A stretch of DNA of 64,000 nucleotides from Tannerellaceae bacterium. Lineage in GTDB: Bacteria; Bacteroidota; Bacteroidia; Bacteroidales; Tannerellaceae. A program made the translations under genes and the position numbers. The stretch lies in NCBI GenBank assembly GCA_031255855.1, contig JAIRRS010000002.1, forward strand, positions 227-64,226, read 5' to 3'. Below the pieces are notes generated by a model, which did no database searches, was not told where the DNA came from, and saw only the letters and a list, made by a program, of their open reading frames with translations. This document shows, one piece after another, positions 11,034 through 36,942 of this stretch; position 1 is the first letter of the stretch, and the number at the start of each line of letters is the position of its first letter.

Positions 11034-11081
11034 ATTATTATGTTTATATAAATTATTGATATAAAAGAAATAAATTTCATA

Positions 11082-13481: not shown

Positions 13482-13599
13482 TGTATAACACGTTTATGTA
13501 GTTCAAACGCTGCAAAGTTCTCCATAAAGCGATAACAAATCAATCGCAACAAATAGGTAAAACAACACTACATAAACTCCTGATAATAACTATTTGTAG

Positions 13600-16275: not shown

Positions 16276-16400
16276 ATATTTAATGTTATATTGTTTCTTT
16301 TTGTCAAGTTCTTTTTTTACTCTAATTCTGCAAAACAAATGCCAAAAGACAATACTGTCAATTTGACTTATCAGAATCTATTTCGATCAACAATAAAACA

Positions 16401-19730: not shown

Positions 19731-19736
19731 ACCGTA

Positions 19737-22700
19737 TCATTTTTTTATTAGTTTTGCTTTTACTCCTTCCGGGTGTAGCCAGCCATAGCCATTCTGCTGA
19801 AGTTTTTTTATCAGGTCGTCGAAATCATCGTCTGTCCAACTTGGGTATGTTTTCAAAAACACGTCCAAATAAGGGCGGGCTCCTTCATCCCAATCCTTCC
19901 AGCCGGGAAATTCATACTGGTAATCTATCTGCAAAAGGTGGGGCGTGTCTTTCCCTCCATCTCCATAAGTTGAAAATGTAACCGCATAATTTCCATAAGG
20001 ATATATGGCTATACGATCCCCTTCCGTATGCAACATGGATATGTTCTTTCCGGTATATGTATCCCACACATAGACTTTGCCGCGGGTAGTGGAAAGCGCA
20101 AAACGTTCATTCGGGAGAAATTGCACATCCGTCGGTATGATATTGATGATTTCGTCAAATTCCCTAACTATCTGCAAGGTGCTCAAATCCATCAGTATAA
20201 TCTTATTCAAAAAACCCATTAACAATTTCGTACGATCATGATTGATACCCATGCAACAAACATCTTTATGGAGCGTATGTTTTACTTTCCCACGGTCTAC
20301 ATCCCATAACAGAACTTCCGCATAAAGTCTGTAGAAATGGGTAGACATCGTGATTACGGATGTTCTGTCCGAACCAAAATAAGCGCTCCTTATTTCATGG
20401 TTGTGGGTAAGTGTACGGATGCATTTTTGTTTTTTTATATCCCATATCTTAACCGTTTTGTCTTCACTGCCCGACAAGAGATATTTATCATCCAAACTAA
20501 CGTCTAATGCAGTAATGGGAGACTTATGACATTTATCGAACGAAAACAAATAGTTGCCGGTGAAAGCATCGAATACCTTTATCGGTTCGGTATATAAATT
20601 TACGGCAAAAAGGAGTTTTTTGTCGGGACTCACTGTAAACAGGTTTACAGCTCCTTCTATCCGGCAAATACTCTTTTCGTTTACAATATCATACAAGTGC
20701 CCATCGGCAATGGTCTTGCAATCGGCCGTCACCAAATGATTAACTGCAACCTCTCTGGCTGCCCTTTTTTCAGTAAAAGTCCGGAGGCCCTTGATCCGGC
20801 AATACTTCCCGAGTTCGGCATTCAACTCTACATACGAAGATAAATTCACGACATAAGGGATTGTATCTATCTCTTCTATCAGGTCTAATGCTTTCTGTAT
20901 TTCTCTGTTTTTAAGATTTTTATTGATTTTTTCTTTTATCATATGAAAATGAGACTCATGCTCCAAACTCTCTTTCGCGCTAATAATGTGGGTTAACGAC
21001 CAATTAATAACGGAATAGTTTTTTCGGGGAAGGAATGGAAAACACATCAATGACTTGTTTCCGGTTTTCTCCATAAGGTATATAGGGTATGTCGTAACAA
21101 AGAAATATTCATTGGAAGAATGGAAAGCAAATGCTTTAAAGAGGCCGCTATAATAAGATATTTTGCTTTGTCCGGTTTGCATGTCCATTAATTTCGAAAT
21201 TAATGATAGTATATAAACATGGCGGTTATCCGGGCAAAAATGCATGTTCGTTCCAAAACCTTTATCATAAGAAGATACCAGCCTGCCAGAAGATACATCC
21301 AACAACCAGAATTCTCCCGTGTTGAAATTCACTCCTGCCATATCGTCGTTAAAAGTGAAATGGAGCGCTTCAACAGAAGATTCACAGGCCCTGTCCCATA
21401 TCAGATTACCATTAGCCGTATCAAATAATTTTATCCTTTTATTCTTATTTCCTGTAACGAAATAGTTTTTATTATTACTGAAACAGGCGGCCGACACTTC
21501 TTCTTCATCAATCGTTATGGTCTGAATACGTTTTCCTTCAACTGTGTCCCATTTGATTAATTTCCCCGACCGGGCATCATCTTCCCAAACCAAAGCCCAC
21601 ACTTGTTCGTTATCCGGACTGAAACAGGCGGTTTTCGGTTTGTCGTTTGCCAATAAGTCGTCTGTAAATGTCCGGACGCATCGTCCCTCTTCCGCAAGCC
21701 ACAGGCAAATGGCGTTGCCGCTGATGTTGTTCATGAAGTCTACCTTCTCCTTAATCATATACGTTTCAATAAACTTATCCATCAAAACATCTTTGTCGAT
21801 ACCCGGTATATTTTTGTACATTGAAACATACAGGTCGTTAACAAAATACTTGGCTATATTTTTCATATTTAATACAGGAGGAATGGTTTTCAATACGCTT
21901 TTTTTATTGCCTATTGCGTTATGGGTTAATACATATTTACCGTCATGACTGATGCAAAAGGCCGACGACTGGATTTTCGGCCATGCATGTTTGTATATTA
22001 ATTGTGCTTTATCGGGCACGTCTCTGAATGAATAATTGATTTTCCATTTTTCAACTCCTATTCTCGAACAGGCTATGATTGCAGATTCTTCTTCCATCCA
22101 TTGCAACAACTCGGCATAATGGAGCTCTTCAGACAATGTTACGCCGGGTTTGGGAACTTTAACGTCGCATCCATGTCGTTCGAGAAATTCCATCAACACG
22201 ATGTAATTTTTATACGTCAAATGGTTCTTGAAAACATTTGTCATTTTACTATCCATTATCATGCCCAGTTCACTGTAATTGTAATTTTCCATACAAAAAT
22301 TAGCAAACAACCAGGCTGCATGATGGTCATATTGATGTTCCCGGTACATGTTTTTCACCATATTCAGCGCTTTCTCGTCATCTATCCTGGCATTCCGCCA
22401 AAGATAAACGGCATAATTGAATACGGCATCGGGGTGGTTCGGGTCAATAACGATTGCCCTTTCCCAGCATTTTTCAGCCTCTTCAGGCATTTTCATATCC
22501 AGATACGAAAGCGCTTTATTGTTTAAACTACCCGCGCTCTCGCCGGCAGCTTTTGGTTGCAAACGAAGGTATAGGCGTCCTGTTATCCCGTGATAAATAT
22601 CCTGCAATTCTTTTTCTATGGCTTCGAATCCGGGACGTAGCTGTTCGTCTTCCAAAAAACAGTGGTCGAAAAGGTCTTGTATCTTGTGGCGTATGTCTAT

Positions 22701-23468
22701 CCGCGGGGTTTTTGCATATTCTTTCCATTTATGTCCTAAGTTTTTTCCGTCTTTCCATTCCGGGGGGCGTTTCCCGATAAACATTTCAAGCAATGTGGCC
22801 GCCCAGTTCCATACGTCCGATTTGTCTGTAAGTTTCTTTTGAGGGTTTGCTTGTTCGGAAGAACGATAAGCTAATGTATAGGTCTCTTTACGGGCTTTTG
22901 AAATCCCGAAATCGGCTATCTTTACTGTGCCTTCTTTCGAAAGTAATATATTGGAAGGTTTAATGTCGCGATGTAATATTGTTTGGTGGGCATACTGCAA
23001 ACCACGAGCCATTTGAATAGCTATGTCCAAAAATCGTTCTATTATTTCCTCTTCGTCGCCTTCATAGAGCGGCCCTTTGCCTTCGCCTATAAAGTCCTTT
23101 AGGTTACCCCCGTCCATCCATTCGGAAAATATAGAAAGGATTCCGTCCGTATCACGTACATAATAGCAGGATACGATATGCGGATGAAGGCCGAGGTCTA
23201 TCCAGGTTTTACACTCATCGAGGAATTGCTCCTTGTATTCTTCTCCTTCAAGAATGGATTGTTTCATAGCCAGGTCTACATTCCATCTCTTGTGGTGTAC
23301 GCGGAATACTTGCCCCATATGCCCTTTAAAAGGGCCTTCTTTTATTTCGTACATGTTGAGGAATGTATCCCCTATCTTGATACCGGAAGAAGAGGCCTTG
23401 TGCAGCGCATTGTCTGTCGACGTTATTTCCCCCAGATTGAATTTCGTTTTATCTTCATTGTTTTCCAT
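19737..23468 (-). CDS. Ser/Thr protein kinase – TPR – two WD40 beta-propellers (1243 aa)
   Basis: The kinase core spans residues ~38-295 with VDLAMK (Lys68), HRDIKPSNILL, DFG and DVWNWAATLLEM. A TPR-like segment (EEAEKCWERAIVIDPNHPDAVFNYAVY) follows. WD40 signatures occur in two blocks, for example LLSGSEDKTVKIWD. There is no P-loop and no TM segment. Confidence 0.85.
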   Translation of the reverse strand: MENNEDKTKFNLGEITSTDNALHKASSSGIKIGDTFLNMYEIKEGPFKGHMGQVFRVHHKRWNVDLAMKQSILEGEEYKEQFLDECKTWIDLGLHPHIVSCYYVRDTDGILSIFSEWMDGGNLKDFIGEGKGPLYEGDEEEIIERFLDIAIQMARGLQYAHQTILHRDIKPSNILLSKEGTVKIADFGISKARKETYTLAYRSSEQANPQKKLTDKSDVWNWAATLLEMFIGKRPPEWKDGKNLGHKWKEYAKTPRIDIRHKIQDLFDHCFLEDEQLRPGFEAIEKELQDIYHGITGRLYLRLQPKAAGESAGSLNNKALSYLDMKMPEEAEKCWERAIVIDPNHPDAVFNYAVYLWRNARIDDEKALNMVKNMYREHQYDHHAAWLFANFCMENYNYSELGMIMDSKMTNVFKNHLTYKNYIVLMEFLERHGCDVKVPKPGVTLSEELHYAELLQWMEEESAIIACSRIGVEKWKINYSFRDVPDKAQLIYKHAWPKIQSSAFCISHDGKYVLTHNAIGNKKSVLKTIPPVLNMKNIAKYFVNDLYVSMYKNIPGIDKDVLMDKFIETYMIKEKVDFMNNISGNAICLWLAEEGRCVRTFTDDLLANDKPKTACFSPDNEQVWALVWEDDARSGKLIKWDTVEGKRIQTITIDEEEVSAACFSNNKNYFVTGNKNKRIKLFDTANGNLIWDRACESSVEALHFTFNDDMAGVNFNTGEFWLLDVSSGRLVSSYDKGFGTNMHFCPDNRHVYILSLISKLMDMQTGQSKISYYSGLFKAFAFHSSNEYFFVTTYPIYLMEKTGNKSLMCFPFLPRKNYSVINWSLTHIISAKESLEHESHFHMIKEKINKNLKNREIQKALDLIEEIDTIPYVVNLSSYVELNAELGKYCRIKGLRTFTEKRAAREVAVNHLVTADCKTIADGHLYDIVNEKSICRIEGAVNLFTVSPDKKLLFAVNLYTEPIKVFDAFTGNYLFSFDKCHKSPITALDVSLDDKYLLSGSEDKTVKIWDIKKQKCIRTLTHNHEIRSAYFGSDRTSVITMSTHFYRLYAEVLLWDVDRGKVKHTLHKDVCCMGINHDRTKLLMGFLNKIILMDLSTLQIVREFDEIINIIPTDVQFLPNERFALSTTRGKVYVWDTYTGKNISMLHTEGDRIAIYPYGNYAVTFSTYGDGGKDTPHLLQIDYQYEFPGWKDWDEGARPYLDVFLKTYPSWTDDDFDDLIKKLQQNGYGWLHPEGVKAKLIKK

Positions 23469-23487
23469 TTCAAAACCTGTGATTAGT

Positions 23488-24252
23488 TCATGGTACTTTA
23501 TCCGCCCAAATGAGAGCCATTTCCTTGGCTTCTCTTAAATAAGATCTGTGATCGAATGTATCTTTTATTTTTTTGATGATTATCTTCCGGTTACTCTCTA
23601 TGGCGCTAACATCTATTCCTAATATATTGCTCATTTCTTTATTGGAATAACCTTCGCCCAATAATTTAACGACGTCATTCTCACGGCAAGTAAACCAGAA
23701 TCCGGGTTTGTCGCGCTGTAGGATTACCTTACTCTTGCCACAATGAGGTATTCCGTCGGACATCGCAATGTCTATGCCTCTGCTAATTTCCATTATCGGC
23801 GAATTCTTGGAAACATGGCCTATTCCCAATTCTGCCAAAAGCCTTATCGGATACCAATGGGTATATCCGGAGTAAACTAATATCTTCATATCGGGATACA
23901 AGCCTTTCATCTCTTTACAAAAGTCTATCCCATTGCCTTCCGGTATTTTGTACAATCTTCTTACCTCCTCTACCGGCATAGGGATGAATTTTTCTTTTTT
24001 CTCCTTCCGTATAATATCCATCTCTATCCCGTTCGTGTCGCTGATATCAAGCAACAAAACATCGGGCAGTTTATATCCTTTCAATAAATCACTTGCCAAC
24101 TTCCTTCTACATTCTTTTAAAGAATCGGAACGTCCAACGACCTCCGCAAAACGTGAATCCTCGATATGTTTTTCTACCTCATCAGCAATCATTATGTGGC
24201 GATCGGCAAGGTAGACTCGTATTTTGTCTTCATTGGCTGCCTCTTTTTTCAT
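23488..24252 (-). CDS. NarL/LuxR-family response regulator with an atypical receiver (about 30-aa loop duplication)
   Basis: The receiver has IRVYLAD…, DVLLLDISD (putative acceptor Asp69), KILVYSGY and HVSKNS. The C-terminal LuxR HTH reads NDVVKLLGEGYSNKEMSNILGIDVSAIESNRKIIIKKI. The segment TNGIEMDI… recurs as MP…GNGIDFCKEM…. Confidence 0.75.
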   Translation of the reverse strand: MKKEAANEDKIRVYLADRHIMIADEVEKHIEDSRFAEVVGRSDSLKECRRKLASDLLKGYKLPDVLLLDISDTNGIEMDIIRKEKKEKFIPMPVEEVRRLYKIPEGNGIDFCKEMKGLYPDMKILVYSGYTHWYPIRLLAELGIGHVSKNSPIMEISRGIDIAMSDGIPHCGKSKVILQRDKPGFWFTCRENDVVKLLGEGYSNKEMSNILGIDVSAIESNRKIIIKKIKDTFDHRSYLREAKEMALIWADKVP

Positions 24253-24881
24253 ACGTCCGTTATTTTTTGCGGGTCTTCTATTTCTATACTTATTTCCGTT
24301 TCCAATCCCGGCGTCGAATGGATTATCATCCGTCCGTCCAAAGCCTCCACACAGGTACTGATATTGGCCAGTCCTTTTCCTATGCCTACATGGTCGGGAT
24401 CGAAGCCTATGCCATCGTCGCGTACCGTAACCGACAGGAAATCGTCATCTACCGTCAATTGTACCCATATTTTCTCCGGGTTCCCATGTTGCACGGCATT
24501 GTCTATTAATTCACGCGTGCACCGATAAATAATCACTACCAAACGGTTATTCAATGACGGTTGTATTCCATATGAACTGAAATACGTCTTCGGAATCATC
24601 TCGCAATAATCTTTTACGGCGTATTTCAACCCCATGGATAATAAAGAAGCAACCGGTTCCAAATCGGCATCCGATTTCGTAAGCCACGAATCGTGTACCT
24701 CCATCCCTTTTGTAAATGCCTTAACATCCTCGCCATCTACAATTGATAACGTCTTCATTTTACCAATCACCCTTTTCTGAACCACGTTTGCCTCCTTCAT
24801 TGGCCAGGCTTTTGCAGATTGGCTTACTTGTTCCTGTTTTCCAACAGATTTGTCTCTTTGTTCCATACTCCAGGTTCTCAT
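24249..24881 (-). CDS. Sensor-less NarL-class (HisKA_3-type) histidine kinase core, cytoplasmic
   Basis: It has a possible H-box EVHDSW, the N-box YRCTRELIDNAVQHG, G1 RDDGIGFD and G2 GIGKGLANISTCVEALDGRMIIHSTPG. Only about 60 residues precede the H-box, with no TM or PAS domain. There is a 4-nt overlap with the response-regulator gene. Confidence 0.65.
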   Translation of the reverse strand: MRTWSMEQRDKSVGKQEQVSQSAKAWPMKEANVVQKRVIGKMKTLSIVDGEDVKAFTKGMEVHDSWLTKSDADLEPVASLLSMGLKYAVKDYCEMIPKTYFSSYGIQPSLNNRLVVIIYRCTRELIDNAVQHGNPEKIWVQLTVDDDFLSVTVRDDGIGFDPDHVGIGKGLANISTCVEALDGRMIIHSTPGLETEISIEIEDPQKITDV

Positions 24882-25503: not shown

Positions 25504-25717
25504 GAGAACCCTGTTTTCCTATATAGCCCCACTTTTGGAACGTTTTTTACCCCGGAAACGGGTTAAAATAATACCTGAAAATTGATTATTGGCATGATAC
25601 CCATAGGTGGTTTTCATAAAAATTTCTCTAAATAAGAGAAAAAGAAACGCTTTTATATATCAAATACTTGTTTTTGGCAGAAACAAATATTTATTTTGTG
25701 ATAAAACTAAAGATACC

Positions 25718-27268
25718 ATGATAAACAATCGTTTACTTCTTTCATTCGTGGGGTTTTGCATGGCTCTGCTACCCTTATACGCACAAGAAAAAGCTATCGA
25801 AAAAATTATCCAAACCGGACAAACGGACAACCGTGTCATGCACCATCTGGACATCTTGACAAACCGCTTCGGAGGACGGTTGGTAGGCTCCGGCGCTTTC
25901 GAAGATGCAACCCAATGGATGGTAAGGGAATATAAAAGTTGGGGATTGGATGTGAAACTGGAAGAGGCCGGAAGTGTTCCCGTAGGGTTTAACCGGGGGC
26001 CTTGGTCTGGACGTATGCTCAGCGACAACGGAATGATCCTGCATTTCGCCACCCCTTCTTTTACTTCCGGCACGAAAGGCCTGCAACGCGGCCATGTGTT
26101 GATTGAACCAAAAACACAGGACGAATTTAAACATATGAAAGGGGCGTTGAATGGCGCTTGGGTACTGATATCAGGTAAAAACGACGGATTTCCCATAGAC
26201 CGCTCACATTCCGGGGATTCTATCCGTGCCATTATAAAAGCCGAGAACGAAAAAATTACAACAGAAAACCGGGAGCGGATGCTTCGGAACCGGACAAACA
26301 GGGAAAACAACGAGATGTTGCCTTACAGAGAATTTCCTGCTTTGTTTTACCATGAAATGTGCGAGGCAGGCGTATTGGGTTTCATTCAATCATCACCTGT
26401 ACCTATCCGCGCGTTATACGACCGAAAAATGATAGACAGCGGGGAGTTGACTTTCGACAATTTGCCTGATAAACCGGATATCAAACTCGACGAACACCAG
26501 TTTGCCCTTATTGAACAAATGACCAAAGAACGGCGCGAATTTCTCCTTGAATTCGACATCCGAAACCATTTCCGTATCGGCCCTGTCAAATATCACAACC
26601 TTGTTGCTTCTATCAAAGGGAGCAAATACCCCGACGAATATGTGATAGTAAGCGCGCATCTCGACGCGTACGACGTCGCCACGGGAGGCATTGACTGCGG
26701 TACGGGCATCGGCCCGATGATGGAAGCGGCTCGTATGATTGCCTTGTCGGGAGCCAAACCCAAACGCACCATCCTCTTTATCGCTTTTGCCGCCGAAGAA
26801 TTCGGACTGCTTGGCGCGAAAGCTTTTGTCAAGGCACACCCCGACATGTTGCCAAAAATCGCCAACTTGTTCAACCGTGATGGAGGGCCGTTGCCACCCG
26901 TTGGTATCACCGTCCCCCCAGCCATGTATGATGATTTCGTGGAAATTTGCGAACCCATCAAAAAAATCCGTCCCGGCTATCCGTTTGAAGTGAAAAAGCA
27001 GGAGAAGCCCACTCCGCGGCCTAAAGTACCCAGTAGCCACGATGGTTCGGTATTTGCCGTAGAAGGAGTCCCCATCTTCAATTTCACCACCGAAGATTTT
27101 AAAGGATACAACTTCAATTACGGAGAAATCTGGCACACCGAACGCGACCTCTACACCAAAAACATCCCTGAATACCAGGAGCACACCGCCACCTGTATCG
27201 CCCTCGCCGCCCTGGGTGTAGCCAACCTCAACCACCAATTATCACGAGAACAAGCATATGCCGAATAA
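25718..27268 (+). CDS. M28-family zinc aminopeptidase, secreted
   Basis: The signal peptide begins at the ATG at 25718 (MINNRLLLSFVGFCMALLPLYAQ). Metal-ligand blocks are SAHLDAYD, GIDCGTG and FAAEEFGLLGAKAF. The ORF-track start at 25607 adds an implausible leader. Confidence 0.85.
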   Translation: MINNRLLLSFVGFCMALLPLYAQEKAIEKIIQTGQTDNRVMHHLDILTNRFGGRLVGSGAFEDATQWMVREYKSWGLDVKLEEAGSVPVGFNRGPWSGRMLSDNGMILHFATPSFTSGTKGLQRGHVLIEPKTQDEFKHMKGALNGAWVLISGKNDGFPIDRSHSGDSIRAIIKAENEKITTENRERMLRNRTNRENNEMLPYREFPALFYHEMCEAGVLGFIQSSPVPIRALYDRKMIDSGELTFDNLPDKPDIKLDEHQFALIEQMTKERREFLLEFDIRNHFRIGPVKYHNLVASIKGSKYPDEYVIVSAHLDAYDVATGGIDCGTGIGPMMEAARMIALSGAKPKRTILFIAFAAEEFGLLGAKAFVKAHPDMLPKIANLFNRDGGPLPPVGITVPPAMYDDFVEICEPIKKIRPGYPFEVKKQEKPTPRPKVPSSHDGSVFAVEGVPIFNFTTEDFKGYNFNYGEIWHTERDLYTKNIPEYQEHTATCIALAALGVANLNHQLSREQAYAE

Positions 27269-27393: not shown

Positions 27394-30300
27394 TTAACGA
27401 TGATTCGCTTGCCTGAACTGCTGAGGAGTTACCCCGGTGTGTTTTTTAAAACAACGGGTAAAATATGCCGGATTTGAAAATCCCAAACTATATGCTACTT
27501 CCGAAATTGTCAACTGATGTTTCTGCCGAAACAGAGTCATGGCATGATTCATCTTAACAGACAAGATATAATCATTCGGAGTCATACCTGTAATATGTTT
27601 GATCCGGTTGAAAAGCTGTGTTCGTCCTATCCCTAAATACCTGCTCCAACGTGTTGTGTCAAAATCTACATTTTCAAAATTGACTTCTATTACGCGGATC
27701 GCTTGCTCCAGGAAAGCCTGGTCGTGCAAATTAGTCGTCATCTCGGCCGAAGATGTTTCTCCGGTCGATTGATTATTCGATTGGTTAAGCAATCGTTTCT
27801 GATTCCTTACCAGCCGGTTGCACCGCAAATAAAGAATATTGGCATTAAACGGTTTCACAATATACTCGTCGGCGCCTGCCTGAATCACCTCAATATATTG
27901 TTTTTCAGAAGGATTAGATGACATCAAAATTACCGGAATATGCAATGTCCTTATATTCGATTTTATCATCTTACATAATTCTATCCCGGATATTCCGGAA
28001 ACGGATGTTTCCGCGATAATCAGATCCGGAATGCTGTCCGCGGCATCTTTATAACCCTCTTCCCCATTATCTTTAATTGATATATTGTATAAAGGTGAAA
28101 AGATTGTGGTGAAAAGCGTCAGCATTTCATCATTATAATCAATTAACAACAAACGGTATTTTTTATTCTGATCGTGAGTATTGTCTTCTACTCCCAACAT
28201 ATCCTCTTCTATAAATTCTTCCGTAAAAAACGGCGCCTTTTCTGTAGATTCAGCCAATATAGATAGTTCATCGTCATTAAAATGTTTCTCACCCAGTCTT
28301 AAACGGACATAAATTGTAATGACATTATCTTCTGTTTCAACAAATAATTCTCCTCTATGCAATTCAATGATTCGTTTTGCCAATACCAGCCCGATACGGT
28401 TTCCGGAAACCGAACGGATATCTGCCGGCAAATCCGCGCTATTCAATGTTTCCAGCAAACGATTCAGCATTATTTTGTTCGGGTCATTCGTATAGCAAGC
28501 AATCGTGGTCTCAAGCCAGCCCGATTTCTTCAAAAATACAACCGAGACTTTTCCCCTCGGATCAATGAGCTGGAACGCCGCGGGTAATAAATTATAAAAC
28601 ACTTTTTGCATCTGTATCCTATCGAACCAAAGCATAATAGTCTCGGCATACTGCTTAGGGTATACGAACGATTTACCTTGAGCATAAACAGCGAATGAAA
28701 GACATACTTCCTGTATGAAATCGGGAAACGAAAAACTATTTACCCTCAAACTTAATTTATTCAATCCCGTTTGGTGCAAATCCAGAAATTCAGTAATTAC
28801 ATTCTGAAGAAAATAAGCCTGTTTACGTATCTGCATAATCTTCGATTTCCTCAGACCGGAAAATTCCTGCAATAAACTATACGAAATAGATATGATCAAT
28901 GTCAACGGCGTCCTGAATGCATTGGATATGCTGGTGAAAAAATCAATCTGATTGCGGTTTATCTCTTCCATGCGATCGATTTCCCGCCGTTCTATTTCCA
29001 ATGAGGCCTGTAATTCCGCTTTTCCTTTATAAAAAAGCCAGAAAATACGTAATAGCACAGTCACAATAATAATATATAGCAGGAAAGCCGGCCAGGAAAA
29101 CCAAAAAGGTGACTTGATCTTTACATTCAACATGATTTTCTTGTCGGGATTGGTCGTTTCTTGAATAACCAACTGATAATTACCCGGTCTCAGTGAAGAA
29201 TAAGTAATTGTTTTATGTTCCGTATAATTCCAGAAGTTGTCCAACCCTTCCAGTTTATACCGGTAGCGGGTATGATAGGCCGGTATATAATTGGATGTGG
29301 CGAATATAAAATTCAATGTGTTTTGGTCATATGGCAGCACCAATTCTTTTAAATCAACTACATTCTTCTGCCGGTAAGGCTTATTATTGACCAACAAAGA
29401 GGAAAGATAAAACGAATAAGTATTATTAAGCACATGCATTTCCCGTTCATTAAATGAGAGCATGCCATATAAGCCGCCTACATAGATATCACTTGTTTGT
29501 GATGAAACAAATAATCCACAATCTTCGCCGATTTCCAAAATCGGATACGAACCATTTAACAAGACATGCCGGGATGAATCAATGGTTTTCTGCGCCGAAA
29601 TATTCAATAAAGTTATCCCCTGGCTGGATGTTACTACTAAGTTTCCACCGGATGTTAATGCCAGGTTGTAACATATATCATTTAACAACCAGTTGTCTTT
29701 TACCGAAAAGACACGGAAAGAGTCAATTTCGGCAATATAGTTTAACAAGCCCGATTTGGAAGTGGCAAAAAACAATCCCTGTTTCGAATCGCCACAAATA
29801 GAAACGATTGCGCTTGGCAACTTTCCCCGGCCTCCCGACCCGATATTATACGAACGGATTAACTTCTCCTCCGACAAATCGACGGTAAAAAGCCCATCCT
29901 TCAATGTCGAAACCCATAATACATTACAATCATCAATATGGATCGTGCGTATAAATCCGGAACATAATTTCCTTAATCCGGCTTCCCGGAAAAGGCCGGA
30001 TATTTCCTGTGTATTCCGATTCATCTGATAAATGCCATCCTGAGTCAGCAATATCAACTTATTGCGATAAGGTATGATTTTCTCAACAATTTTTTTCAAT
30101 CGGGAATCCAACGTATCACTCCGGATAGATCCGGTTTTTCCCGTATTCACATCCAGATAATACAGGCCTTCCATATACACGCTGATATACAATTTATTAT
30201 ATTCTTCATCAAACCATAAAGCACGAATTTTATCATTGGGCAACTGACCGGACGCTGCTTTGAGATGCCGGACCGTTCCCGTTTTTTTATTGATAATATT

Positions 30301-31425
30301 AATTCCGCTACCTTCTGTCGCGATATATAAGTTTCCGGTTTTATCTTCAGCCATATTTCCTAACACGACCCCATGAATCTCGTCAGGCCGCTTCTCATCT
30401 GTTTTCCAGAAATTATAATTATCCGTTTGCGGATTAAAATAACGAACAGTCCCATAATACGAACCTATCCAGATTGTACCTTGCCGATCCGTACACAAAG
30501 CATAAATCATGGAGGTGGGCAACAGAAGGTCTGGGCTCGCCCGCAGGCTATTTGTGGAGATTAGATAAATACCGGCTATTGTCCCCATCCATATATTCCC
30601 GGTTGAAGGACTTTCAGTGAAACAAAAGACTTCCCCGTTATATATCGTTCCGTTTTCGTATTGGAGAGACTGCACTTGTTCTTCCGGAGAAACAATGAAT
30701 ACCCGTCGAGACCTGGAGCTTACCCAAATATGGCCATGTGAATCCCGGTAGAGACTATTTATACTTTCCGAATGTATGATCTGCCTGGCATGATACTTTC
30801 CATCGAGAGATTCTTCTACTTTAAACAATCCCGTAGTCGCACCTAACCATATTTCATTATTGGCAGATATGAGAATCGATATAATGGCCGTACCTTCCGG
30901 AAGCTCACATACCACATTCTTCGATCCCACCTCAACATCATATATATATAGCCGGTTTTCATACGAAAAATAAACATGATTTCTCCCTGAATATATCGCA
31001 TCTGCCTTTATTTCGGGTCGTATAAATTTATTGGTAATCAAATCCAAACAAATTAATTGCTCCGCCGCCAGTAGATATAACGTTGAATCATTGCCGCAAA
31101 TACCGTGAATATCGGCGTCTTCAATATCCTCAAAATATTCGGATAACCTGTAAATCATTACATCATCTCCATTATAACAATTCAGCACTTCATTCCCAAT
31201 CCACATGCGCCCCCAACTGTCTTGCCAGATAGATATGGCGGATGCCTGAGTCATTCCCTGCGCGGGTCCGAGTGTTCTGAAAGACCGCTCTTTCCCATGC
31301 ACTGAAAGACAAAAAAACACCAACATCAATGCAAAATAAAATAATCTTTTTACAGGCATTTTAACAAAACATTTCTCCAATTTATCAGCCAAAGGTAAAG
31401 AATAATCATACAACATCGTACGCAT
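27394..31425 (-). CDS. Hybrid two-component system regulator (beta-propeller/Y_Y_Y sensor – TM – HisKA/HATPase – REC – AraC HTH) with substituted phospho-acceptor residues
   Basis: It has the canonical HTCS layout, but the H-box reads FFTSISNAFRTPLTLI (Asn835 where His is expected, codon 28921-28923). The N-box is NLLPAAF and no DxGxG G1 box is seen. The receiver acceptor reads PDLIIAET (Glu1139, codon 28009-28011). The AraC HTH is at the C-terminus. An alternative start is the ATG at 31359. Confidence 0.9.
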   Translation of the reverse strand: MRTMLYDYSLPLADKLEKCFVKMPVKRLFYFALMLVFFCLSVHGKERSFRTLGPAQGMTQASAISIWQDSWGRMWIGNEVLNCYNGDDVMIYRLSEYFEDIEDADIHGICGNDSTLYLLAAEQLICLDLITNKFIRPEIKADAIYSGRNHVYFSYENRLYIYDVEVGSKNVVCELPEGTAIISILISANNEIWLGATTGLFKVEESLDGKYHARQIIHSESINSLYRDSHGHIWVSSRSRRVFIVSPEEQVQSLQYENGTIYNGEVFCFTESPSTGNIWMGTIAGIYLISTNSLRASPDLLLPTSMIYALCTDRQGTIWIGSYYGTVRYFNPQTDNYNFWKTDEKRPDEIHGVVLGNMAEDKTGNLYIATEGSGINIINKKTGTVRHLKAASGQLPNDKIRALWFDEEYNKLYISVYMEGLYYLDVNTGKTGSIRSDTLDSRLKKIVEKIIPYRNKLILLTQDGIYQMNRNTQEISGLFREAGLRKLCSGFIRTIHIDDCNVLWVSTLKDGLFTVDLSEEKLIRSYNIGSGGRGKLPSAIVSICGDSKQGLFFATSKSGLLNYIAEIDSFRVFSVKDNWLLNDICYNLALTSGGNLVVTSSQGITLLNISAQKTIDSSRHVLLNGSYPILEIGEDCGLFVSSQTSDIYVGGLYGMLSFNEREMHVLNNTYSFYLSSLLVNNKPYRQKNVVDLKELVLPYDQNTLNFIFATSNYIPAYHTRYRYKLEGLDNFWNYTEHKTITYSSLRPGNYQLVIQETTNPDKKIMLNVKIKSPFWFSWPAFLLYIIIVTVLLRIFWLFYKGKAELQASLEIERREIDRMEEINRNQIDFFTSISNAFRTPLTLIISISYSLLQEFSGLRKSKIMQIRKQAYFLQNVITEFLDLHQTGLNKLSLRVNSFSFPDFIQEVCLSFAVYAQGKSFVYPKQYAETIMLWFDRIQMQKVFYNLLPAAFQLIDPRGKVSVVFLKKSGWLETTIACYTNDPNKIMLNRLLETLNSADLPADIRSVSGNRIGLVLAKRIIELHRGELFVETEDNVITIYVRLRLGEKHFNDDELSILAESTEKAPFFTEEFIEEDMLGVEDNTHDQNKKYRLLLIDYNDEMLTLFTTIFSPLYNISIKDNGEEGYKDAADSIPDLIIAETSVSGISGIELCKMIKSNIRTLHIPVILMSSNPSEKQYIEVIQAGADEYIVKPFNANILYLRCNRLVRNQKRLLNQSNNQSTGETSSAEMTTNLHDQAFLEQAIRVIEVNFENVDFDTTRWSRYLGIGRTQLFNRIKHITGMTPNDYILSVKMNHAMTLFRQKHQLTISEVAYSLGFSNPAYFTRCFKKHTGVTPQQFRQANHR

Positions 31426-31599
31426 ACCTTATAAAATCGTACGGTAAACGATTCTATACCGTTAAAAATAAGATTATGGCATCTATGAATCAATCCCGTC
31501 TTTTACATTTGTTAATAAACAAAAAGAAAAAGGAAAATACATTTTCATTCAAAAATGAGATTATATATTGAAATTAATTATTAAAAAAATCATCAAATT

Positions 31600-34500
31600 A
31601 TGACGAGAGTTTACAGATCTGTAAGCATGTTATTATTAGCTGTTGTATTCAGTTCTCTCGGAACAACGAATGCATGGAATGGCCCGGCAATAGAAAAAGC
31701 TGCCGTATCCCAGCAAAAGAAAAAAGTGACGGGTATAGTAGAAGATGAGCTGGGGCCGGTTGCCGGAGCGGCTGTGGTCATAAAAGGTACAACTACAGGG
31801 AGTATTACCGATATGGACGGCCAGTTTTCAATGGATGTAAACAATGGTGAAACGATTGTCGTTTCTTTTCTGGGGTATGTTACACAGGAAATCAAGTACA
31901 CCGGACAAGAGCATTTGACAATTAAATTAGTAGAAGATGCACAGGCGCTGGACGAAGTAGTGGTAACGGCGCTAGGTATGAAGCGCTCTGAAAAATCATT
32001 GGGATATGCCATGACAGAGTTAAAAGGAAATGAATTGAATACTAATTTAATCAATCCTGTTGCTGCTTTACAAGGAAAAGTTGCCGGGCTGGAAATTTCC
32101 GGGTCAGATGGAGGTTCTTTTGGTTCAACCAAAGTTCAAATCCGTGGAGTTTCTACTTTAAAGAAGAACAACCAACCCATCTATGTAGTAGATGGAATTA
32201 TCTTATCCAACGATATCAAGGAGGGAGATCCGGATTGGGATGGAAATGCGAATGATTACGGAAATGAGCTAAAAAACCTGAATCCTGATGATTTCGAAAC
32301 GATATCAGTTTTAAAAGGCGCTGCAGCTACAGCCTTATACGGTTCACGTGGTTTGAACGGAGCTATTGTAATCACTACTAAAAATGGTAGAGCCGGACAA
32401 GGATTAGGCATTCATTTTACTCAAACAGTCGGAATGGAGATGGTTACTGCATCACCTAATTTACAAAATGTATATGGAGATGGTACGGCTGCCGGATATG
32501 TTGAATATGGAGAAAAAGACGCCAGTGGTAATTATTATATTTTTGACAACTACCGTCAGTTTGCTCTAAATAATAGTAAGCGTGAAACTTTTATCCCTAA
32601 TCAAGGGATGGGTTTCGGTCCTGCATTTGATGGTCGTGAAATTGAATATTATGATGGCACATATCGTTCATATAGTCCGGTGAAGAACAATTTTAGAAAG
32701 GCATATGATACAGGTTTTAACTCTAACACCAATATAGCAATTAGTGGAGGAAATGATAAAACAACATTCTATACTTCATTAGGATATAGATATGCAAAAG
32801 GTATATTACCGAACAATGAATTTCAACGTTTTTCTTTTTTAGGTAAAGCTTCTCATAAAATCACTAATCGAGTTAGATTAGATATTAGTATGTCTTTTGC
32901 TAATTCAATGCCTAAAAATCCATTAACCAACATTGGCGAACAATTTGTAAACGGGAATTGGGGACGTTCTTATGACCCTTCCTATTCAAAGAAAAAATAT
33001 CAGGGATCGCATGGTGGTCAAGCAAGTACAGATTATGGAGACGAATATGGCAATATGCCAGGGTTGGGAACTTGGTGGAGAATCTACAAGCACAGCTATG
33101 AGCAAAAAGAGACATCTGTACGTCCTGTAGTCAAGTTGGAAATTGATTTACTGGATTGGTTGAAATTTAACACCGAGGGAAGTTACAACTACTATTACAC
33201 TCGTTACGAAGGAAAAGAATTAGGTAGCGGTTATGCCAATGAAGGCGGTAAATATGAAATGCGATTGCGTGCAAAAGAACAGACAAACCTGAACACAAAC
33301 TTCATCGCTAATAAAACATTCGGAGATTGGACTGTAAGTGGTTTTTTGCGTGGAGAATACTTTAATGAATTTTTACAACAACAAGAAATGAATACAGAAG
33401 GCGGCTTAGTTGTACCCGGACAATATTTTATCGCCAACTCAAAGCAAACGCCCAAATACACAGCAAAGATTAAAGATACAAAAAGAATTCTTTCTGTTGC
33501 ATTTCAAGCCGGTATAAGTTGGAAAGATCAGGTATTTGTGGATGCAACCGGACGCAACGACTGGTCTTCTTCATTAGTTTATAGTGATGGCCATGGCACT
33601 TATTCTTATTTTTATCCATCTGTTAATGGTTCTTGGTTAATAACAAATACATTCCAAGATCAATTGCCTGAATGGATTTCTTTTGCAAAAATTCGTGGTT
33701 CGTGGGCTCAGGTAGGTAGTGATACAGATCCTTATACAATAAACTCTGCGTATGAGTTAACAACTTCAACTTCCGGAAGCACCAATTATTATGGTTTAAA
33801 AACACCTACTAAAGTTAATAGTACAAATTTAAAACCAGAACGTAAAAATGCATGGGAAGTTGGTTTGGATTGGCGTTTTGTAAATAACCGGTTTGGCGTT
33901 GACTTTACTTACTATAAAGAAAATACAAAAGACCAGATTATGGAAATAGCCGTACCTTATCAATCTGGTATTTTGAAACAACTTATTAATGCTGGAAATA
34001 TTCAAAATAAAGGGGTTGAATTAGCCTTAAATGTTGTGCCGATTCAAACAAAAGATTTAGAATGGGGTCTGAATTTCACTTATACCAAAAATGACAATAA
34101 AATCATTTCGTTGCATGAAAATGTAGCTGATTATATCGTATTATCAGGAGATGTAGCTTATGGAAATTACCGTATCGGTTCTGTAGCTAAAGTCGGTTCA
34201 TCTTATGGTACATTAATGACGGATAGTTATCTTAAAATAGATAAATCATCGGGCATGCCTGTTTTAGTTTGGACAGAATCTATGAAACGTGCTAACTACT
34301 TACGTAATGAAGCAGAAATACACGAAATTGGCTCTATGATTCCGGATTTTTTAGGTTCTGTATCAACAAACCTCAAATACAAAAACTGGAGTTTATATGT
34401 TGGATTAGATATGCGTTTCGGTGGTTATGTTGCTTCTTATAATTCACGTTATGGAACTGCTTATGGATACACGAAAAATTCATTAAACGGCTCCCCTGGT

Positions 34501-35028
34501 CATGGTGGTATTACTTGGACTTCTAAATTTGATGGCAAGACTTATCATGATGGAGTTGTGCCTGAAGGAATTTTTGCAGAAGGAACAACTATTGCACAAG
34601 CTGACGGAAGTACTTATACAGTAGGAACAGGTGGTATCTCAAATGCCGGAGAATCTTATCAGGAATTAATCAATAAAGGTGTGATTGAACCTACTCATTC
34701 ATCTGCTTGGGCATATCGTAATAATGCATGGACGATGGCAGGCCGCAATTATGGAGTTGTTTCAAAAGATTGGGTGAAGGAATTAAATTATATCGCGTTG
34801 CGCGACATCTCTATTAGTTATCAAGTACCATCCAGTTTTTGCAAAAAATTAAACGCCACAAGTTTGAATTTAACATTAGCCGGACATAACTTAGGCTACT
34901 TACTGAACACCATGCCAAGTGGGGAAAATCCAGAATCGGTAAGCGGTACAGCTGCTGCTGAATTCCGTGTACGTTCGTACCAAGGAGTTACGTCCAGTTA
35001 TACATTTACACTGAATGTAGGATTCTAA
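31600..35028 (+). CDS. SusC/RagA-family TonB-dependent receptor
   Basis: The 1142-aa protein has a signal peptide, CarboxypepD_reg (VTGIVEDELGPVAGAAVVIKGTTTGSITDMDGQFSM), the SusC plug (LDEVVVTALGMKRSEKSLGYA), AALYGSRGLNGAIVITTK and a C-terminal F. Confidence 0.92.
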   Translation: MTRVYRSVSMLLLAVVFSSLGTTNAWNGPAIEKAAVSQQKKKVTGIVEDELGPVAGAAVVIKGTTTGSITDMDGQFSMDVNNGETIVVSFLGYVTQEIKYTGQEHLTIKLVEDAQALDEVVVTALGMKRSEKSLGYAMTELKGNELNTNLINPVAALQGKVAGLEISGSDGGSFGSTKVQIRGVSTLKKNNQPIYVVDGIILSNDIKEGDPDWDGNANDYGNELKNLNPDDFETISVLKGAAATALYGSRGLNGAIVITTKNGRAGQGLGIHFTQTVGMEMVTASPNLQNVYGDGTAAGYVEYGEKDASGNYYIFDNYRQFALNNSKRETFIPNQGMGFGPAFDGREIEYYDGTYRSYSPVKNNFRKAYDTGFNSNTNIAISGGNDKTTFYTSLGYRYAKGILPNNEFQRFSFLGKASHKITNRVRLDISMSFANSMPKNPLTNIGEQFVNGNWGRSYDPSYSKKKYQGSHGGQASTDYGDEYGNMPGLGTWWRIYKHSYEQKETSVRPVVKLEIDLLDWLKFNTEGSYNYYYTRYEGKELGSGYANEGGKYEMRLRAKEQTNLNTNFIANKTFGDWTVSGFLRGEYFNEFLQQQEMNTEGGLVVPGQYFIANSKQTPKYTAKIKDTKRILSVAFQAGISWKDQVFVDATGRNDWSSSLVYSDGHGTYSYFYPSVNGSWLITNTFQDQLPEWISFAKIRGSWAQVGSDTDPYTINSAYELTTSTSGSTNYYGLKTPTKVNSTNLKPERKNAWEVGLDWRFVNNRFGVDFTYYKENTKDQIMEIAVPYQSGILKQLINAGNIQNKGVELALNVVPIQTKDLEWGLNFTYTKNDNKIISLHENVADYIVLSGDVAYGNYRIGSVAKVGSSYGTLMTDSYLKIDKSSGMPVLVWTESMKRANYLRNEAEIHEIGSMIPDFLGSVSTNLKYKNWSLYVGLDMRFGGYVASYNSRYGTAYGYTKNSLNGSPGHGGITWTSKFDGKTYHDGVVPEGIFAEGTTIAQADGSTYTVGTGGISNAGESYQELINKGVIEPTHSSAWAYRNNAWTMAGRNYGVVSKDWVKELNYIALRDISISYQVPSSFCKKLNATSLNLTLAGHNLGYLLNTMPSGENPESVSGTAAAEFRVRSYQGVTSSYTFTLNVGF

Positions 35029-35067
35029 ATGTGGTTGATTATTGTGAAATATAAATTAAAACAGAAT

Positions 35068-36942
35068 ATGAAAAGAAATAAAAATATAATCGTATCACTT
35101 CTGATAACATCCGCTCTATTTACTACAAGTTGTAAGGATGATTTTGCAGACTTGAATACAGATCCGGCAAATGTAACTGAAGGTAATCCTTCATTCTTAT
35201 TTGCTCAAGGGATTCTTGAATTTGAACCTTCAGGATATACTTATTGGTTTTATAATGCATCCGAAATATATCAATGGGTACAAACCGGGGTACATATAGG
35301 TGGAATATCTTCTTCGCTTGCTGATGGAGCGCCTGCGCAAAGTTTTAAATCTATTGATGTTCTCAAATATGCGAATGAATTGAAATATGTTCGTTCTCAA
35401 ATGGACGAGGAAGAAAGTGAAAAATATGTTCAATATGCAGCAGCTTTGGATGTCTTGTGCGTATATATGGGAATTTATGATTCTGATTTTATTGGTAGCA
35501 TACCTTATACAGAAGGAGCACAAGCGGCCCATGGCGGTACATTAACACCTAATTACGACCGTGTTGAAGATTTATATAATTTATGGTTGACTAGCTTGGA
35601 TAAAGATATACAAGTATTAACAACCGCAGCAAATCAAGTTTTCCAAGCATCACAGGATCCTGTTTACAATGGAAATGTTAGCAAATGGGCTAAACTTGCT
35701 AATTCATTAAAATTAAAAATAGCAGCAAGACTTATTAATCAGGATCGTAACAAAGCATTAAATATTGCCGGAGAAGTTGCAAAAGCGTCATGTGGCGTAT
35801 TAAACGGAGAAGCTGATGACTTTCTTTTTAATAAAGCGACAAGTAGTACTTCCGATAATGATTATCCTTACCATTGGTCTAATGGTGTTTTAAGATCTGT
35901 CGCAAGTTCTCAAACAGTAATCGATTTTCTGGTAAAAAATAAAGACCCACGTGTTCGGTTTATTTATTCGAAAAATAGATGGAACTCAAAAGTTGTTCAA
36001 TTGTTCTTTGATGCCAAACGTGAAAATGATGTACCTAAATATATTATGGATAACGTAGATTATGAAGTTGGTGTAAATGGCATTTATCAATTTAAAGGCT
36101 GGAAAGGCGCTGGTGAACCATGGGTACGTTATCATGGTTTACCTTTAGCTTTTGGCGCCGGACAACAAGCAGGTACTTATGGCGATTGGTTTAATTATGA
36201 AATTCAATGTCGATATGATGAAAATTATACCTATCGCCCTTATTCCATGTTTAATGAAGAAATGGTTTACGGACGTCTTGACTTTACATATCCAACAATA
36301 CCTGGAGATGCAGCTATTCAAGATATTGAAGATATGCCTTGGTGGGGTATGTATATGACAACATCCGAAGTCAATTTATATTTAGCTGAATTCAGTTTAT
36401 TAGGAGCAAATCTTCCGGAGAGTGCACAGACTTATTTTAATAAAGCTTTGCCTGCATCCGTAAGAGAGTATAACCGTTTAGCTGCCAATAACCGAATTCC
36501 TTATTATGGCACAACATATAATAACTATGATCCATATGAAAAAGCAATTGACTTGGTAGATGGCGAAATTGAAACGATGATGGCTAATGCTGATTATCAA
36601 TTAACGGGTAATAAAACGACTGATTTGGAAAAAGTATATATCCAACAAATTTTGCATTTCAGCATGTTACCTATTGAACAATATACAACAGCTCGTCGTT
36701 CGGGTGTTCCTGCAATCGGTTCAAGTCTCTTTAAACGTTCTGATTACAGTCAAATCCCTGTATCTTCGATCCCTCGCCGTATGGCACTTAATGCGCCTTC
36801 TCTTACAGACTTAATGTATAATGTATTAATGGAGTCTTATAAAGAACAAGGTTATACTGTGGGATCAGGAACAATTTTGAATTCAGAACGTGTATGGCAA
36901 GATAAGAATAATCCACAATGGGGAGCGGGTCCTAATATGTAA
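35068..36942 (+). CDS. SusD/RagB-family lipoprotein
   Basis: It has a lipoprotein signal MKRNKNIIVSLLITSALFTTSC|KDD and lies immediately after SusC. It is TPR-like and helical with an aromatic-rich C-terminal half. I chose the start at 35068, the ATG preceding the lipobox. Confidence 0.9.
   Translation: MKRNKNIIVSLLITSALFTTSCKDDFADLNTDPANVTEGNPSFLFAQGILEFEPSGYTYWFYNASEIYQWVQTGVHIGGISSSLADGAPAQSFKSIDVLKYANELKYVRSQMDEEESEKYVQYAAALDVLCVYMGIYDSDFIGSIPYTEGAQAAHGGTLTPNYDRVEDLYNLWLTSLDKDIQVLTTAANQVFQASQDPVYNGNVSKWAKLANSLKLKIAARLINQDRNKALNIAGEVAKASCGVLNGEADDFLFNKATSSTSDNDYPYHWSNGVLRSVASSQTVIDFLVKNKDPRVRFIYSKNRWNSKVVQLFFDAKRENDVPKYIMDNVDYEVGVNGIYQFKGWKGAGEPWVRYHGLPLAFGAGQQAGTYGDWFNYEIQCRYDENYTYRPYSMFNEEMVYGRLDFTYPTIPGDAAIQDIEDMPWWGMYMTTSEVNLYLAEFSLLGANLPESAQTYFNKALPASVREYNRLAANNRIPYYGTTYNNYDPYEKAIDLVDGEIETMMANADYQLTGNKTTDLEKVYIQQILHFSMLPIEQYTTARRSGVPAIGSSLFKRSDYSQIPVSSIPRRMALNAPSLTDLMYNVLMESYKEQGYTVGSGTILNSERVWQDKNNPQWGAGPNM

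Follow-up and report, generated by a model that had tools for sequence, protein, structure and literature searches.

Hybrid two-component systems (HTCSs) are the main glycan-sensing regulators of the Bacteroidota, and their mechanism has always been described as an intramolecular His-Asp relay. RetS of Pseudomonas and DivL of Caulobacter are catalytically inactive kinases that act through contacts with separate partner proteins, while ChxR (with Glu at the acceptor position), HP1043 and NblR are aspartate-less receivers that work as phosphorylation-independent transcription factors, being soluble, stand-alone proteins with no cognate kinase. Here we describe a regulator of HTCS architecture encoded in a 64,000 nt stretch of contig JAIRRS010000002.1 from a Tannerellaceae bacterium (assembly GCA_031255855.1, positions 227 to 64,226 of the forward strand), referred to below as the window. 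This regulator (the query in what follows) belongs to a clade that retains the entire relay scaffold under purifying selection and none of its chemistry.

In canonical HTCSs an inhibitory interface between the receiver and the DNA-binding domain (the REC-DBD latch) is formed by S/C-H-I-P in the alpha3-beta4 loop, an alpha6 Asp and an alpha8 Lys (Gao, Wu and Stock, mBio 2024, PMC11253607). The latch residues are conserved at 84-98% in 6908 Bacteroides HTCSs, with the whole motif present in ~74%, and departures from the consensus are linked to phosphorylation-independent DNA binding: BT4124R carrying an S/C-H to A-D change binds DNA without phosphorylation, and BT2391, with the latch FHIP-QK, is a repressor (PMC11253607). 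A phosphorylation-independent mechanism has also been suggested for BT4236 of B. thetaiotaomicron, which has Gln848 at the phospho-His site and the latch CSIP-EK (PMC11253607). The sites that HTCSs occupy are tandem half-sites ~21-22 bp apart, as established by footprinting of BT4124 (PMC13292587), and BguR of Formosa agariphila and SusR are membrane-spanning one-component regulators of polysaccharide utilization loci (bioRxiv 10.64898/2026.01.10.698779). BT4236 (Gln848), the BT4124 AD mutant and BguR are the precedents for phosphorylation-independent signalling from HTCS-type sensors.

The query is encoded by a maximal ORF of 1343 codons on the minus strand (27394-31425), and an earlier note, made from the letters of the window, had proposed that both of its phospho-acceptor residues are substituted; all that the note read from the sequence proved correct at the coordinates it gave. 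We aligned it by MAFFT with 120 database homologues, including 60 canonical HTCSs and 59 members of what we call the Asn clade; the column assignments were consistent in three independent alignments, and no alignment places another His or Asp at the acceptor columns. The H-box, FFTSISNAFRTPLT, has Asn835 (codon AAT, 28921-28923) in the column of the phospho-His, which is His in 60/60 canonical HTCSs and Asn in 59/59 clade members. The next residue is Ala836 in place of the Glu found in 59/60 canonical sequences; it too was read correctly before, and it is peculiar to the query, as 58/59 clade members keep the Glu. Their retention of this Glu despite the lost His suggests that it has a non-catalytic role. 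In the assembly, Ala836 (GCA, 28918-28920) is a single-base change from Glu.

The receiver is altered at its acceptor too, with Glu1139 (codon GAA, 28009-28011, within IPDLIIAET) in the column of the phospho-Asp, which is Asp in 60/60 canonical HTCSs and Glu in 54/58 clade members (Asp in 2, Lys in 2). A phmmer alignment pairs PDLIIAETSV with PDLIISDVMM of PDB entry 12AW, and so puts Glu1139 opposite the acceptor Asp. The Mg-binding Asp (CheY D13), invariant in the canonical set (60/60), is Tyr1097 in the query and degenerate in the clade, a loss that adds to those listed earlier. The downstream Ser/Thr and Lys are kept as had been noted: Ser1169 (T/S87, retained in 55/58 clade members) and Lys1191 (K109, 53/58) are accompanied by Tyr1188 (Y106, 58/58), and all three positions are kept in canonical HTCSs. 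The degeneracy of the ATP-binding domain holds equally, in that the second Asn of the N-box is Ala949 (Asn in 0/53 clade members, 59/60 canonical), the G1 box DxGxG reads C-Y-T-N-D and the F box (FDRFYQ) reads LLETLN, both being lost in the clade, and G2 (G-N-R-I-G) is partly kept; all three of these boxes are present in canonical HTCSs. An alternative acceptor, the His in LDLHQTG, was considered and rejected, being unconserved: it is Gln in the close orthologues P0005/6/8-11 and Arg in canonical HTCSs. Because His, Asp, the Mg site and the ATP pocket are all missing, and the catalytic and ATP-binding (CA) domain is dispensable in relatives, a His-Asp relay is very probably excluded, as far as sequence allows, in agreement with what the earlier note had claimed.

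Around these substitutions the architecture is that of an HTCS. The periplasmic sensor, with tandem Reg_prop beta-propellers and Y_Y_Y (residues ~45-770; 29116-31293), passes Pfam (71.8 and 35.2 bits respectively) and has phmmer matches in the BT4663 sensor (4A2L) and in 3V9F, 3OTT and 3VA6. It is followed by a transmembrane (TM) helix, PFWFSWPAFLLYIIIVTVLLRIFWLFY, a hydrophobic segment taken from the translation (residues ~773-800; 29026-29109), by the helical hairpin of the dimerization and histidine phosphotransfer (DHp, HisKA-like) domain with Asn835-Ala836 instead of His-Glu (residues 806-895; 28741-29010), by the degenerate CA (HATPase_c-like) domain (residues 896-1045; 28291-28740), by the pseudo-receiver (residues 1089-1205; 27811-28161) and by an AraC/HTH_18 DNA-binding domain (residues 1231-1343; 27397-27735; HTH_18 78.1 bits, HTH_AraC 53.9 bits), all on the minus strand. 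HisKA (15.3 bits, cut-off 26.9) and HATPase_c (21.0 bits, cut-off 26.4) both fail their Pfam thresholds; Response_reg passes with 53.1 bits, and the receiver and AraC part aligns end to end with 12AW, the crystal structure of the BT4124 receiver-DBD, in a phmmer comparison. The propellers, TM segment and AraC helix-turn-helix are thus as intact as had been supposed, and the frame is uninterrupted, but its first codon is probably not the start: we prefer Met23 (ATG 31357-31359; CDS 27394-31359), since the first 22 ORF codons (31357-31425) harbour a conserved -7 promoter box and an operator-like repeat. Orthologues begin at the equivalent position, and the database gene call P0001 (1340 aa, from Met4) is probably overlong too.

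What the query shares with HTCSs is therefore the Reg_prop/Y_Y_Y sensor with one TM helix, the AraC-type HTH_18 domain, and linkage to susC/susD with ~21-bp tandem repeats; what it lacks are the phospho-His of the H-box, the ATP-binding boxes, the acidic pocket of the receiver and the S/CHIP-D-K latch. On sequence and predicted fold only, it is a pseudo-histidine kinase, having a histidine kinase (HK) fold without the residues for autophosphorylation and ATP binding, and it is also an aspartate-less response regulator, with a receiver fold that has no phospho-acceptor Asp. It is not a one-component regulator of the BguR/SusR type, as DHp, CA and receiver are all present and the chemistry alone is missing. 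In an AlphaFold2 (AF2) model of residues 801-1343 (pLDDT 81.4) the DHp forms a long hairpin and the CA domain an alpha/beta sandwich, followed by receiver and AraC domains, and the TM helix is predicted to be continuous into the DHp. Among the top structural matches of the model are DivL, RetS and plant phytochrome HK-related domains (4Q20, 6DK8, 8ISI), and Foldseek matches it about equally to true kinases (HK853, ZraS, CpxA) and to inactive RetS, DivL and phytochrome A; the CA fold also matches ShkA. Modelled alone, the REC-DBD portion reaches pLDDT 93 (receiver ~97), and the modelled receiver fits solved receivers with TM ~0.9 and rmsd 1.2-1.6 A (Foldseek).

The state of the query is that of an entire lineage. 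Every Asn sequence falls in one clade of a neighbour-joining (NJ) tree, and with the ten diagnostic columns removed the bootstrap is 100/100 both for monophyly of the clade and for P0026 as its sister. The clade ranges over Tannerella, Massilibacteroides, Parabacteroides and two strains labelled Bacteroides sp., and its substitutions persist across several genera down to ~40% identity. A scan of GTDB species genomes found ~25 full-length members, with Asn in all and Glu in all but L016 (Lys); nearly all carry the label of a Tannerellaceae genus (Tannerella, Massilibacteroides, Parabacteroides) and the remainder that of Bacteroides sp., Bacteroidales or Bacteroidetes, with cultured strains among them. 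The last clade member is 39% identical to the query and the next matches 28%, and the four nearest outgroup HTCSs examined (from Muribaculaceae, Dysgonomonas, Paludibacter and a Bacteroidales metagenome-assembled genome, MAG) have the canonical His/Asp. A filter-free search of 1.84 billion representatives yielded few 50%-identity clusters of the clade type. The sister P0026 (86 member sequences) keeps His and Asp but no longer has the N-box Asn or the G1 box, and its latch reads FHIP; possibly it represents an intermediate that gave up ATP binding ahead of the acceptor residues. Within the clade, the sub-lineage P0048, P0049 and P0056-P0059 (~1160 aa; P0059 represents 777 member sequences) has its CA domain deleted and the DHp joined to the receiver, with Asn, Glu and the AraC domain kept; the DHp is never lost, even in these members.

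Two further kinds of variant were seen. In two Tannerellaceae MAGs (L031 5989-8220, L032 5788-8016) the regulator ORF stops soon after the DHp (~744 aa) and susC follows in the same orientation; these short ORFs are either a truncated remnant or a different architecture. Among 146 representatives there is also a handful of unrelated HTCSs with isolated acceptor substitutions, namely P0250 (Asn replacing His and Gly replacing Asp, CA domain intact), P0256 (Asn replacing His, Asp retained), P0197 (His retained, Glu replacing Asp) and P0159 (His retained, Asn replacing Asp). Judged by these sequences, sporadic loss of relay residues recurs in HTCSs, with the Asn/Glu clade as the large conserved case.

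Selection was gauged by approximate Nei-Gojobori dN/dS ratios on codon alignments with four orthologues, of which only the closest pair, the query and L007 (dS ~0.8), is comfortably usable. The ratios are 0.03-0.16 for the DHp, 0.03-0.12 for the CA domain and 0.06-0.16 for the receiver, similar to those of the sensor (0.075-0.12) and the DNA-binding domain (0.05-0.13), and 0.18-0.41 for the inter-domain linker. By dN alone the DHp is the slowest-evolving part, with 80-90% identity among orthologues. Because Asn (59/59) and Glu (54/58) are found clade-wide and the dead domains have dN/dS as low as the sensor and DNA-binding domain, we regard this as a selected state and not decay, and the conclusion that the dead phosphorelay is old and held by purifying selection is well supported by these comparisons. 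Both the orthologue survey and the dN/dS estimates that had been proposed as checks thus favour a selected state, and the scenario set against it, in which close orthologues carry His/Asp and this copy shows relaxed selection, is excluded.

The latch has changed along with the acceptors. Clade members have L-H-I-P (Leu in 41/58), Asp in 44/58 (Glu in 11) and Arg or Gln in 54/58, whereas canonical relatives have S/C in 53/60 and Lys in 54/60; in the query the receiver side is L1161-H-I-P (27934-27945, minus strand) and its partners in the DNA-binding domain are D1235 and R1274. Judged by these columns, the latch is rewired clade-wide from S/CHIP-D-K to LHIP-D-R/Q, which fits an altered REC-DBD control point.

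The gene is divergent from a susC-like TonB-dependent transporter gene (31600-35028, plus strand; 1142 aa; TIGR04056 601 bits, with CarbopepD_reg_2 and Plug), whose best solved homologue is BT2264 (5FQ6_B, 312 bits), and this is followed by a gene for a susD-like lipoprotein (35029-36942, plus strand; 637 aa; SusD-like_2 114.6 bits, SusD-like 111.7 bits) that has SusD homologues among its PDB matches. The regulator/susC/susD module contains neither a glycoside hydrolase nor a lyase, in the window or in the compared clade loci; in the window an M28 peptidase gene lies on one flank of the module, and START-like, LptF/G and riboflavin genes lie on the opposite flank. The same three-gene unit of regulator, SusC and SusD is found again in loci of Tannerella, Massilibacteroides and Parabacteroides whose flanks are unrelated, and of the clade loci with sufficient flank most have a SusC homologue directly adjoining the regulator. 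Two direct repeats of CGTACGAT (31415-31422 and 31436-31443, minus strand), exactly 21 bp apart, constitute a candidate operator. A repeat pair with 21-bp spacing lies in the same position, ~80 bp upstream of the start, in seven loci, and three loci have pairs that individually exceed all 300 shuffles. The half-site varies by genus: a repeat of this spacing and position is seen in L001, L002, L003 and L007, and the half-site is TGAACGAT in L004 (Massilibacteroides) and GTACAATTTTAGTAT in L005 (Parabacteroides); the CA-deleted, convergent locus L006 has no convincing repeat. We take the repeats as a putative HTCS-type operator because their geometry equals the footprinted architecture of the BT4124 site.

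Both promoters can be placed with some probability around these repeats, the Bacteroidetes -7 box consensus being TAnnTTTG. The probable -7 box of the regulator, TACCTTTG (31390-31397, minus strand), is 31 nt upstream of Met23 and is conserved as TATCTTTG or TATTTTTG in orthologues; for susC it is TACATTTG (31504-31511, plus strand), whose CAAA..TA columns are invariant in five loci. That the regulator controls the adjacent SusC/D pair, as the earlier note had proposed, is supported indirectly by the conserved adjacency and the 21-bp intergenic tandem repeats.

The susC/susD pair that accompanies the regulator is of at least two unrelated cassette types. The cassette of the window (31600-36942) is 72-81% identical to those of L003, Parabacteroides L005 (4385-9753) and L016, L026, L033 and L034; compared with L001, L002, L007 and L004, its SusC is only ~33% identical and its SusD undetectable, though the regulators of these loci are closer. 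L001 (4788-9764) and L003 (4424-9777) have flanks with 92-98% amino acid identity, and their regulators are 77%, their SusCs 34% and their SusDs 27% identical. As the first ~100 SusC residues are 77-82% identical across cassette types that are otherwise unrelated, a breakpoint lies inside susC, and the arrangement resembles the allelic ragAB types of P. gingivalis. In L006 the CA-deleted regulator (10001-13492) is convergent with the susC/D pair and has an S41 peptidase gene upstream. Peptidase genes are found by several modules, M28 in the window (25607-27268, plus strand) and M20 and S41 elsewhere (L005 14019-15473; L006 8326-9669). These nearby peptidases, the absence of carbohydrate-active enzymes (CAZymes) from the module and BT2264 as the best solved SusC homologue hint weakly at a peptide or glycopeptide substrate, that is, a nutrient other than a polysaccharide. 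BT2261-2264 may have a peptide ligand.

We think it probable, though well short of certain, that the query is a ligand-gated, phosphorylation-independent membrane transcription factor that acts in the manner of a one-component system. This reading was chosen because the sensor, DHp, receiver and DNA-binding domain are all under purifying selection and an HTCS-type candidate operator is present, and it is built on observed residue states, their conservation, the monophyly of the clade, purifying selection, gene adjacency and the repeats. From these we infer the absence of phosphorylation, gating by a ligand, binding to the repeats and regulation of susC/susD. A ligand bound by the periplasmic sensor would give rise to a signal carried mechanically via the TM helix into the DHp helical bundle, which would hold two pseudo-receiver/AraC units as a dimer, and a conformational change, not a phosphoryl group, would free or position both DNA-binding domains on half-sites 21 bp apart. 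With these half-sites between the regulator promoter and susC, the regulator would control susC/susD and probably itself. Glu1139 and the retained Ser/Thr87, Tyr106 and Lys109 could hold the receiver in or near an active-like conformer, or could provide a docking contact, and the CA domain would be a structural accessory, deleted in one sub-lineage.

Glu1139 might alternatively be a permanent phosphomimetic, in which case the regulator would be locked on, DNA binding would be constitutive and output would be set by abundance and not by a periplasmic ligand. We consider this unlikely, although it has some points in its favour: Glu is present in 54/58 clade members, in which the switch positions T/S87, Y106 and K109 are retained, the latch residues that keep canonical HTCSs off are changed (S/C to L, K to R/Q), and the overlap of the repeats with the promoter region of the regulator itself would be in keeping with autoregulation. 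Departures from the consensus latch are, moreover, tied to phosphorylation-independent DNA binding and to repressor behaviour in BT2391 (PMC11253607). Against it, the latch His and Asp are retained, and the 726-residue sensor is under purifying selection equal to that on the DNA-binding domain (dN/dS 0.075-0.12) and is kept in every full-length clade member, which is hard to explain if it gates nothing. Between gating and a phosphomimetic lock, both raised in the earlier note, the strongly conserved sensor argues for gating.

Strong conservation of the DHp, the most conserved domain (84-90% identity in most orthologue pairs) and one retained even where the CA domain is deleted, could also be taken to indicate a modulator like RetS, in which the dead DHp/CA pairs as a heterodimer with a canonical HTCS or histidine kinase, or docks onto one, and tunes its activity, the protein's own DNA binding being secondary. 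The kinase region of RetS and DivL are indeed among the top Foldseek matches of the AF2 model, but the true kinases HK853, ZraS and CpxA match it equally well. We find this rather improbable, given that the AraC domain is as strongly conserved as the DHp, that a genus-specific tandem repeat of HTCS-operator geometry accompanies the gene and indicates direct DNA binding, and that no partner gene is conserved in the neighbourhood of the compared clade loci. A residual non-canonical relay, in which phosphate goes to another His or Asp/Glu, or comes from a separate kinase in trans, is very improbable: P0026, with His and Asp and a degenerate CA domain, suggests that an intermediate stage may have used phosphorylation in trans or from a small donor, but in the query the sole nearby His (in LDLHQTG) is unconserved, the receiver has neither acceptor Asp nor Mg-binding Asp, and the CA domain has neither the N-box Asn nor the G1 Asp/Gly and is deleted in a sub-lineage. 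Recent decay, that is, an HTCS becoming a pseudogene and yet without a stop codon, has Ala836 and the sub-threshold HisKA and HATPase_c scores on its side but is scarcely credible and was rejected, as the identical substitutions occur in 59/59 members of a monophyletic clade, in several genera and down to ~40% identity, dN/dS is ~0.1 in every domain and the 1343-codon frame is intact.

Several points weigh against the ligand-gated reading that we prefer. Ala836, unique to the query copy, could signal extra drift. The dS values are near saturation (>1 or not computable) for most pairs, so that the ratios are approximate, and the AF2 models have pTM 0.54 (and 0.57), which leaves the inter-domain geometry without confidence and makes DHp-REC and REC-DBD contacts guesses. 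The window's own repeat pair is marginal against shuffles (32/300), and the repeats are nearer the regulator's own promoter than that of susC. In three clade loci with a full 6-kb upstream flank there is no susC near the regulator, and the susC/D cassette type does not co-vary with regulator similarity. Asp-to-Glu phosphomimicry varies from protein to protein. A search for expression evidence found only three DNA runs of a termite-gut metagenome, one of which holds the sequence.

A bolder interpretation, which we offer only tentatively and hold to be doubtful, is that these proteins are a natural record of a phosphorelay becoming a one-component allosteric switch, with Asn835 and Glu1139 in a permanent non-covalent contact and the changes co-adapted. 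Asn835 of the DHp would then face Glu1139 of the receiver at the former phosphotransfer interface, and His-to-Asn and Asp-to-Glu would be coupled changes and not independent losses. The series would run from canonical HTCSs through a CA-dead form with His/Asp kept (P0026) and the Asn/Glu form with rewired latch (the query) to the CA-deleted form (P0048/56-59), and the BguR-type regulators, which have no relay domains, would represent a comparable endpoint in an unrelated family.

Elsewhere in the window, an unusual signalling and proteostasis cluster occupies 13684-24881 on the minus strand. It encodes a ClpB-like AAA+ protein (13684-16338), a 1109-aa double-AAA and M41 (FtsH-like) protease (16401-19730), a 1243-aa Ser/Thr kinase that carries TPR and WD40 propellers (19737-23468), a LuxR/GerE regulator with a sub-threshold receiver score of 21.9 bits (23488-24252), and a 210-aa protein in which HATPase_c is the only domain detected (24249-24881). 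A 920-aa protein (45963-48725, minus strand) has an RGI-lyase beta-sheet domain (36.2 bits) and weak sub-threshold Pfam matches to a trypsin-like domain (26.7 bits) and to a type IX secretion system (T9SS) C-terminal sorting domain (23.5 bits, cut-off 27).

The clade suggests that the relay scaffold is able to transmit a signal, or to fill another selected role, without phosphate. It also provides a natural mutant set (Asn/Glu, dead CA, deleted CA and altered latch) with which conformational coupling could be told apart from phosphotransfer, and its cultured carriers include Massilibacteroides vaginae MV12, Parabacteroides sp. Marseille-P3160, PH5-46 and PF5-6, and Bacteroides sp. 519. Each ingredient has a precedent, in inactive HK homologues, aspartate-less receivers, BT4236 and BguR/SusR-type sensors. 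Literature searches on pseudokinases with HTCSs or Bacteroides found nothing, and those on phosphorylation-independent HTCSs or BT4236 found only PMC11253607 and a 2013 regulon paper, with BT4236 as the sole acceptor-less HTCS precedent; in the literature searched we found no description of a conserved, monophyletic HTCS clade in which Asn and Glu are coupled, the CA domain is dead or deleted and the latch is specific to the clade, with the domains all kept under selection.

In comparison with canonical HTCSs (BT1754, BT3172, BT4663, BT4124), the query has the same domain order and folds from sensor to AraC DNA-binding domain, the same divergent susC/susD adjacency and the same tandem half-sites ~21 bp apart, but it is without phospho-His, phospho-Asp, Mg-site Asp and ATP-binding motifs, its latch is LHIP-D-R and not S/CHIP-D-K, and its locus is without CAZymes. 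With BguR it shares an HTCS-type propeller/Y_Y_Y sensor coupled across the membrane to a DNA-binding domain without a phosphorelay and, as predicted here, regulation of an adjacent susC/D locus; BguR, however, is devoid of HisKA, HATPase_c and receiver domains and has a GerE helix-turn-helix at its end, whereas the query keeps all three relay domains, selected but chemically dead, and an AraC-type DNA-binding domain. Like DivL, RetS and the phytochrome HK-related domains, it has kept the DHp-CA fold and lost the catalytic residues, but its pseudo-kinase is fused to its own pseudo-receiver and DNA-binding domain. ChxR shares the Glu at the acceptor position, but unlike ChxR, HP1043 and NblR the receiver of the query is tethered to a sensor and a dead kinase. 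BT4236 is likewise an HTCS without a phospho-acceptor His and with a non-consensus latch, but it is a single protein mentioned in one sentence, with Gln and not Asn, another latch variant, and an Asp and CA state that is unreported in PMC11253607. The query, by contrast, is one of an entire clade in which Asn and Glu are coupled, the CA domain is dead and the latch is of the clade's own type.

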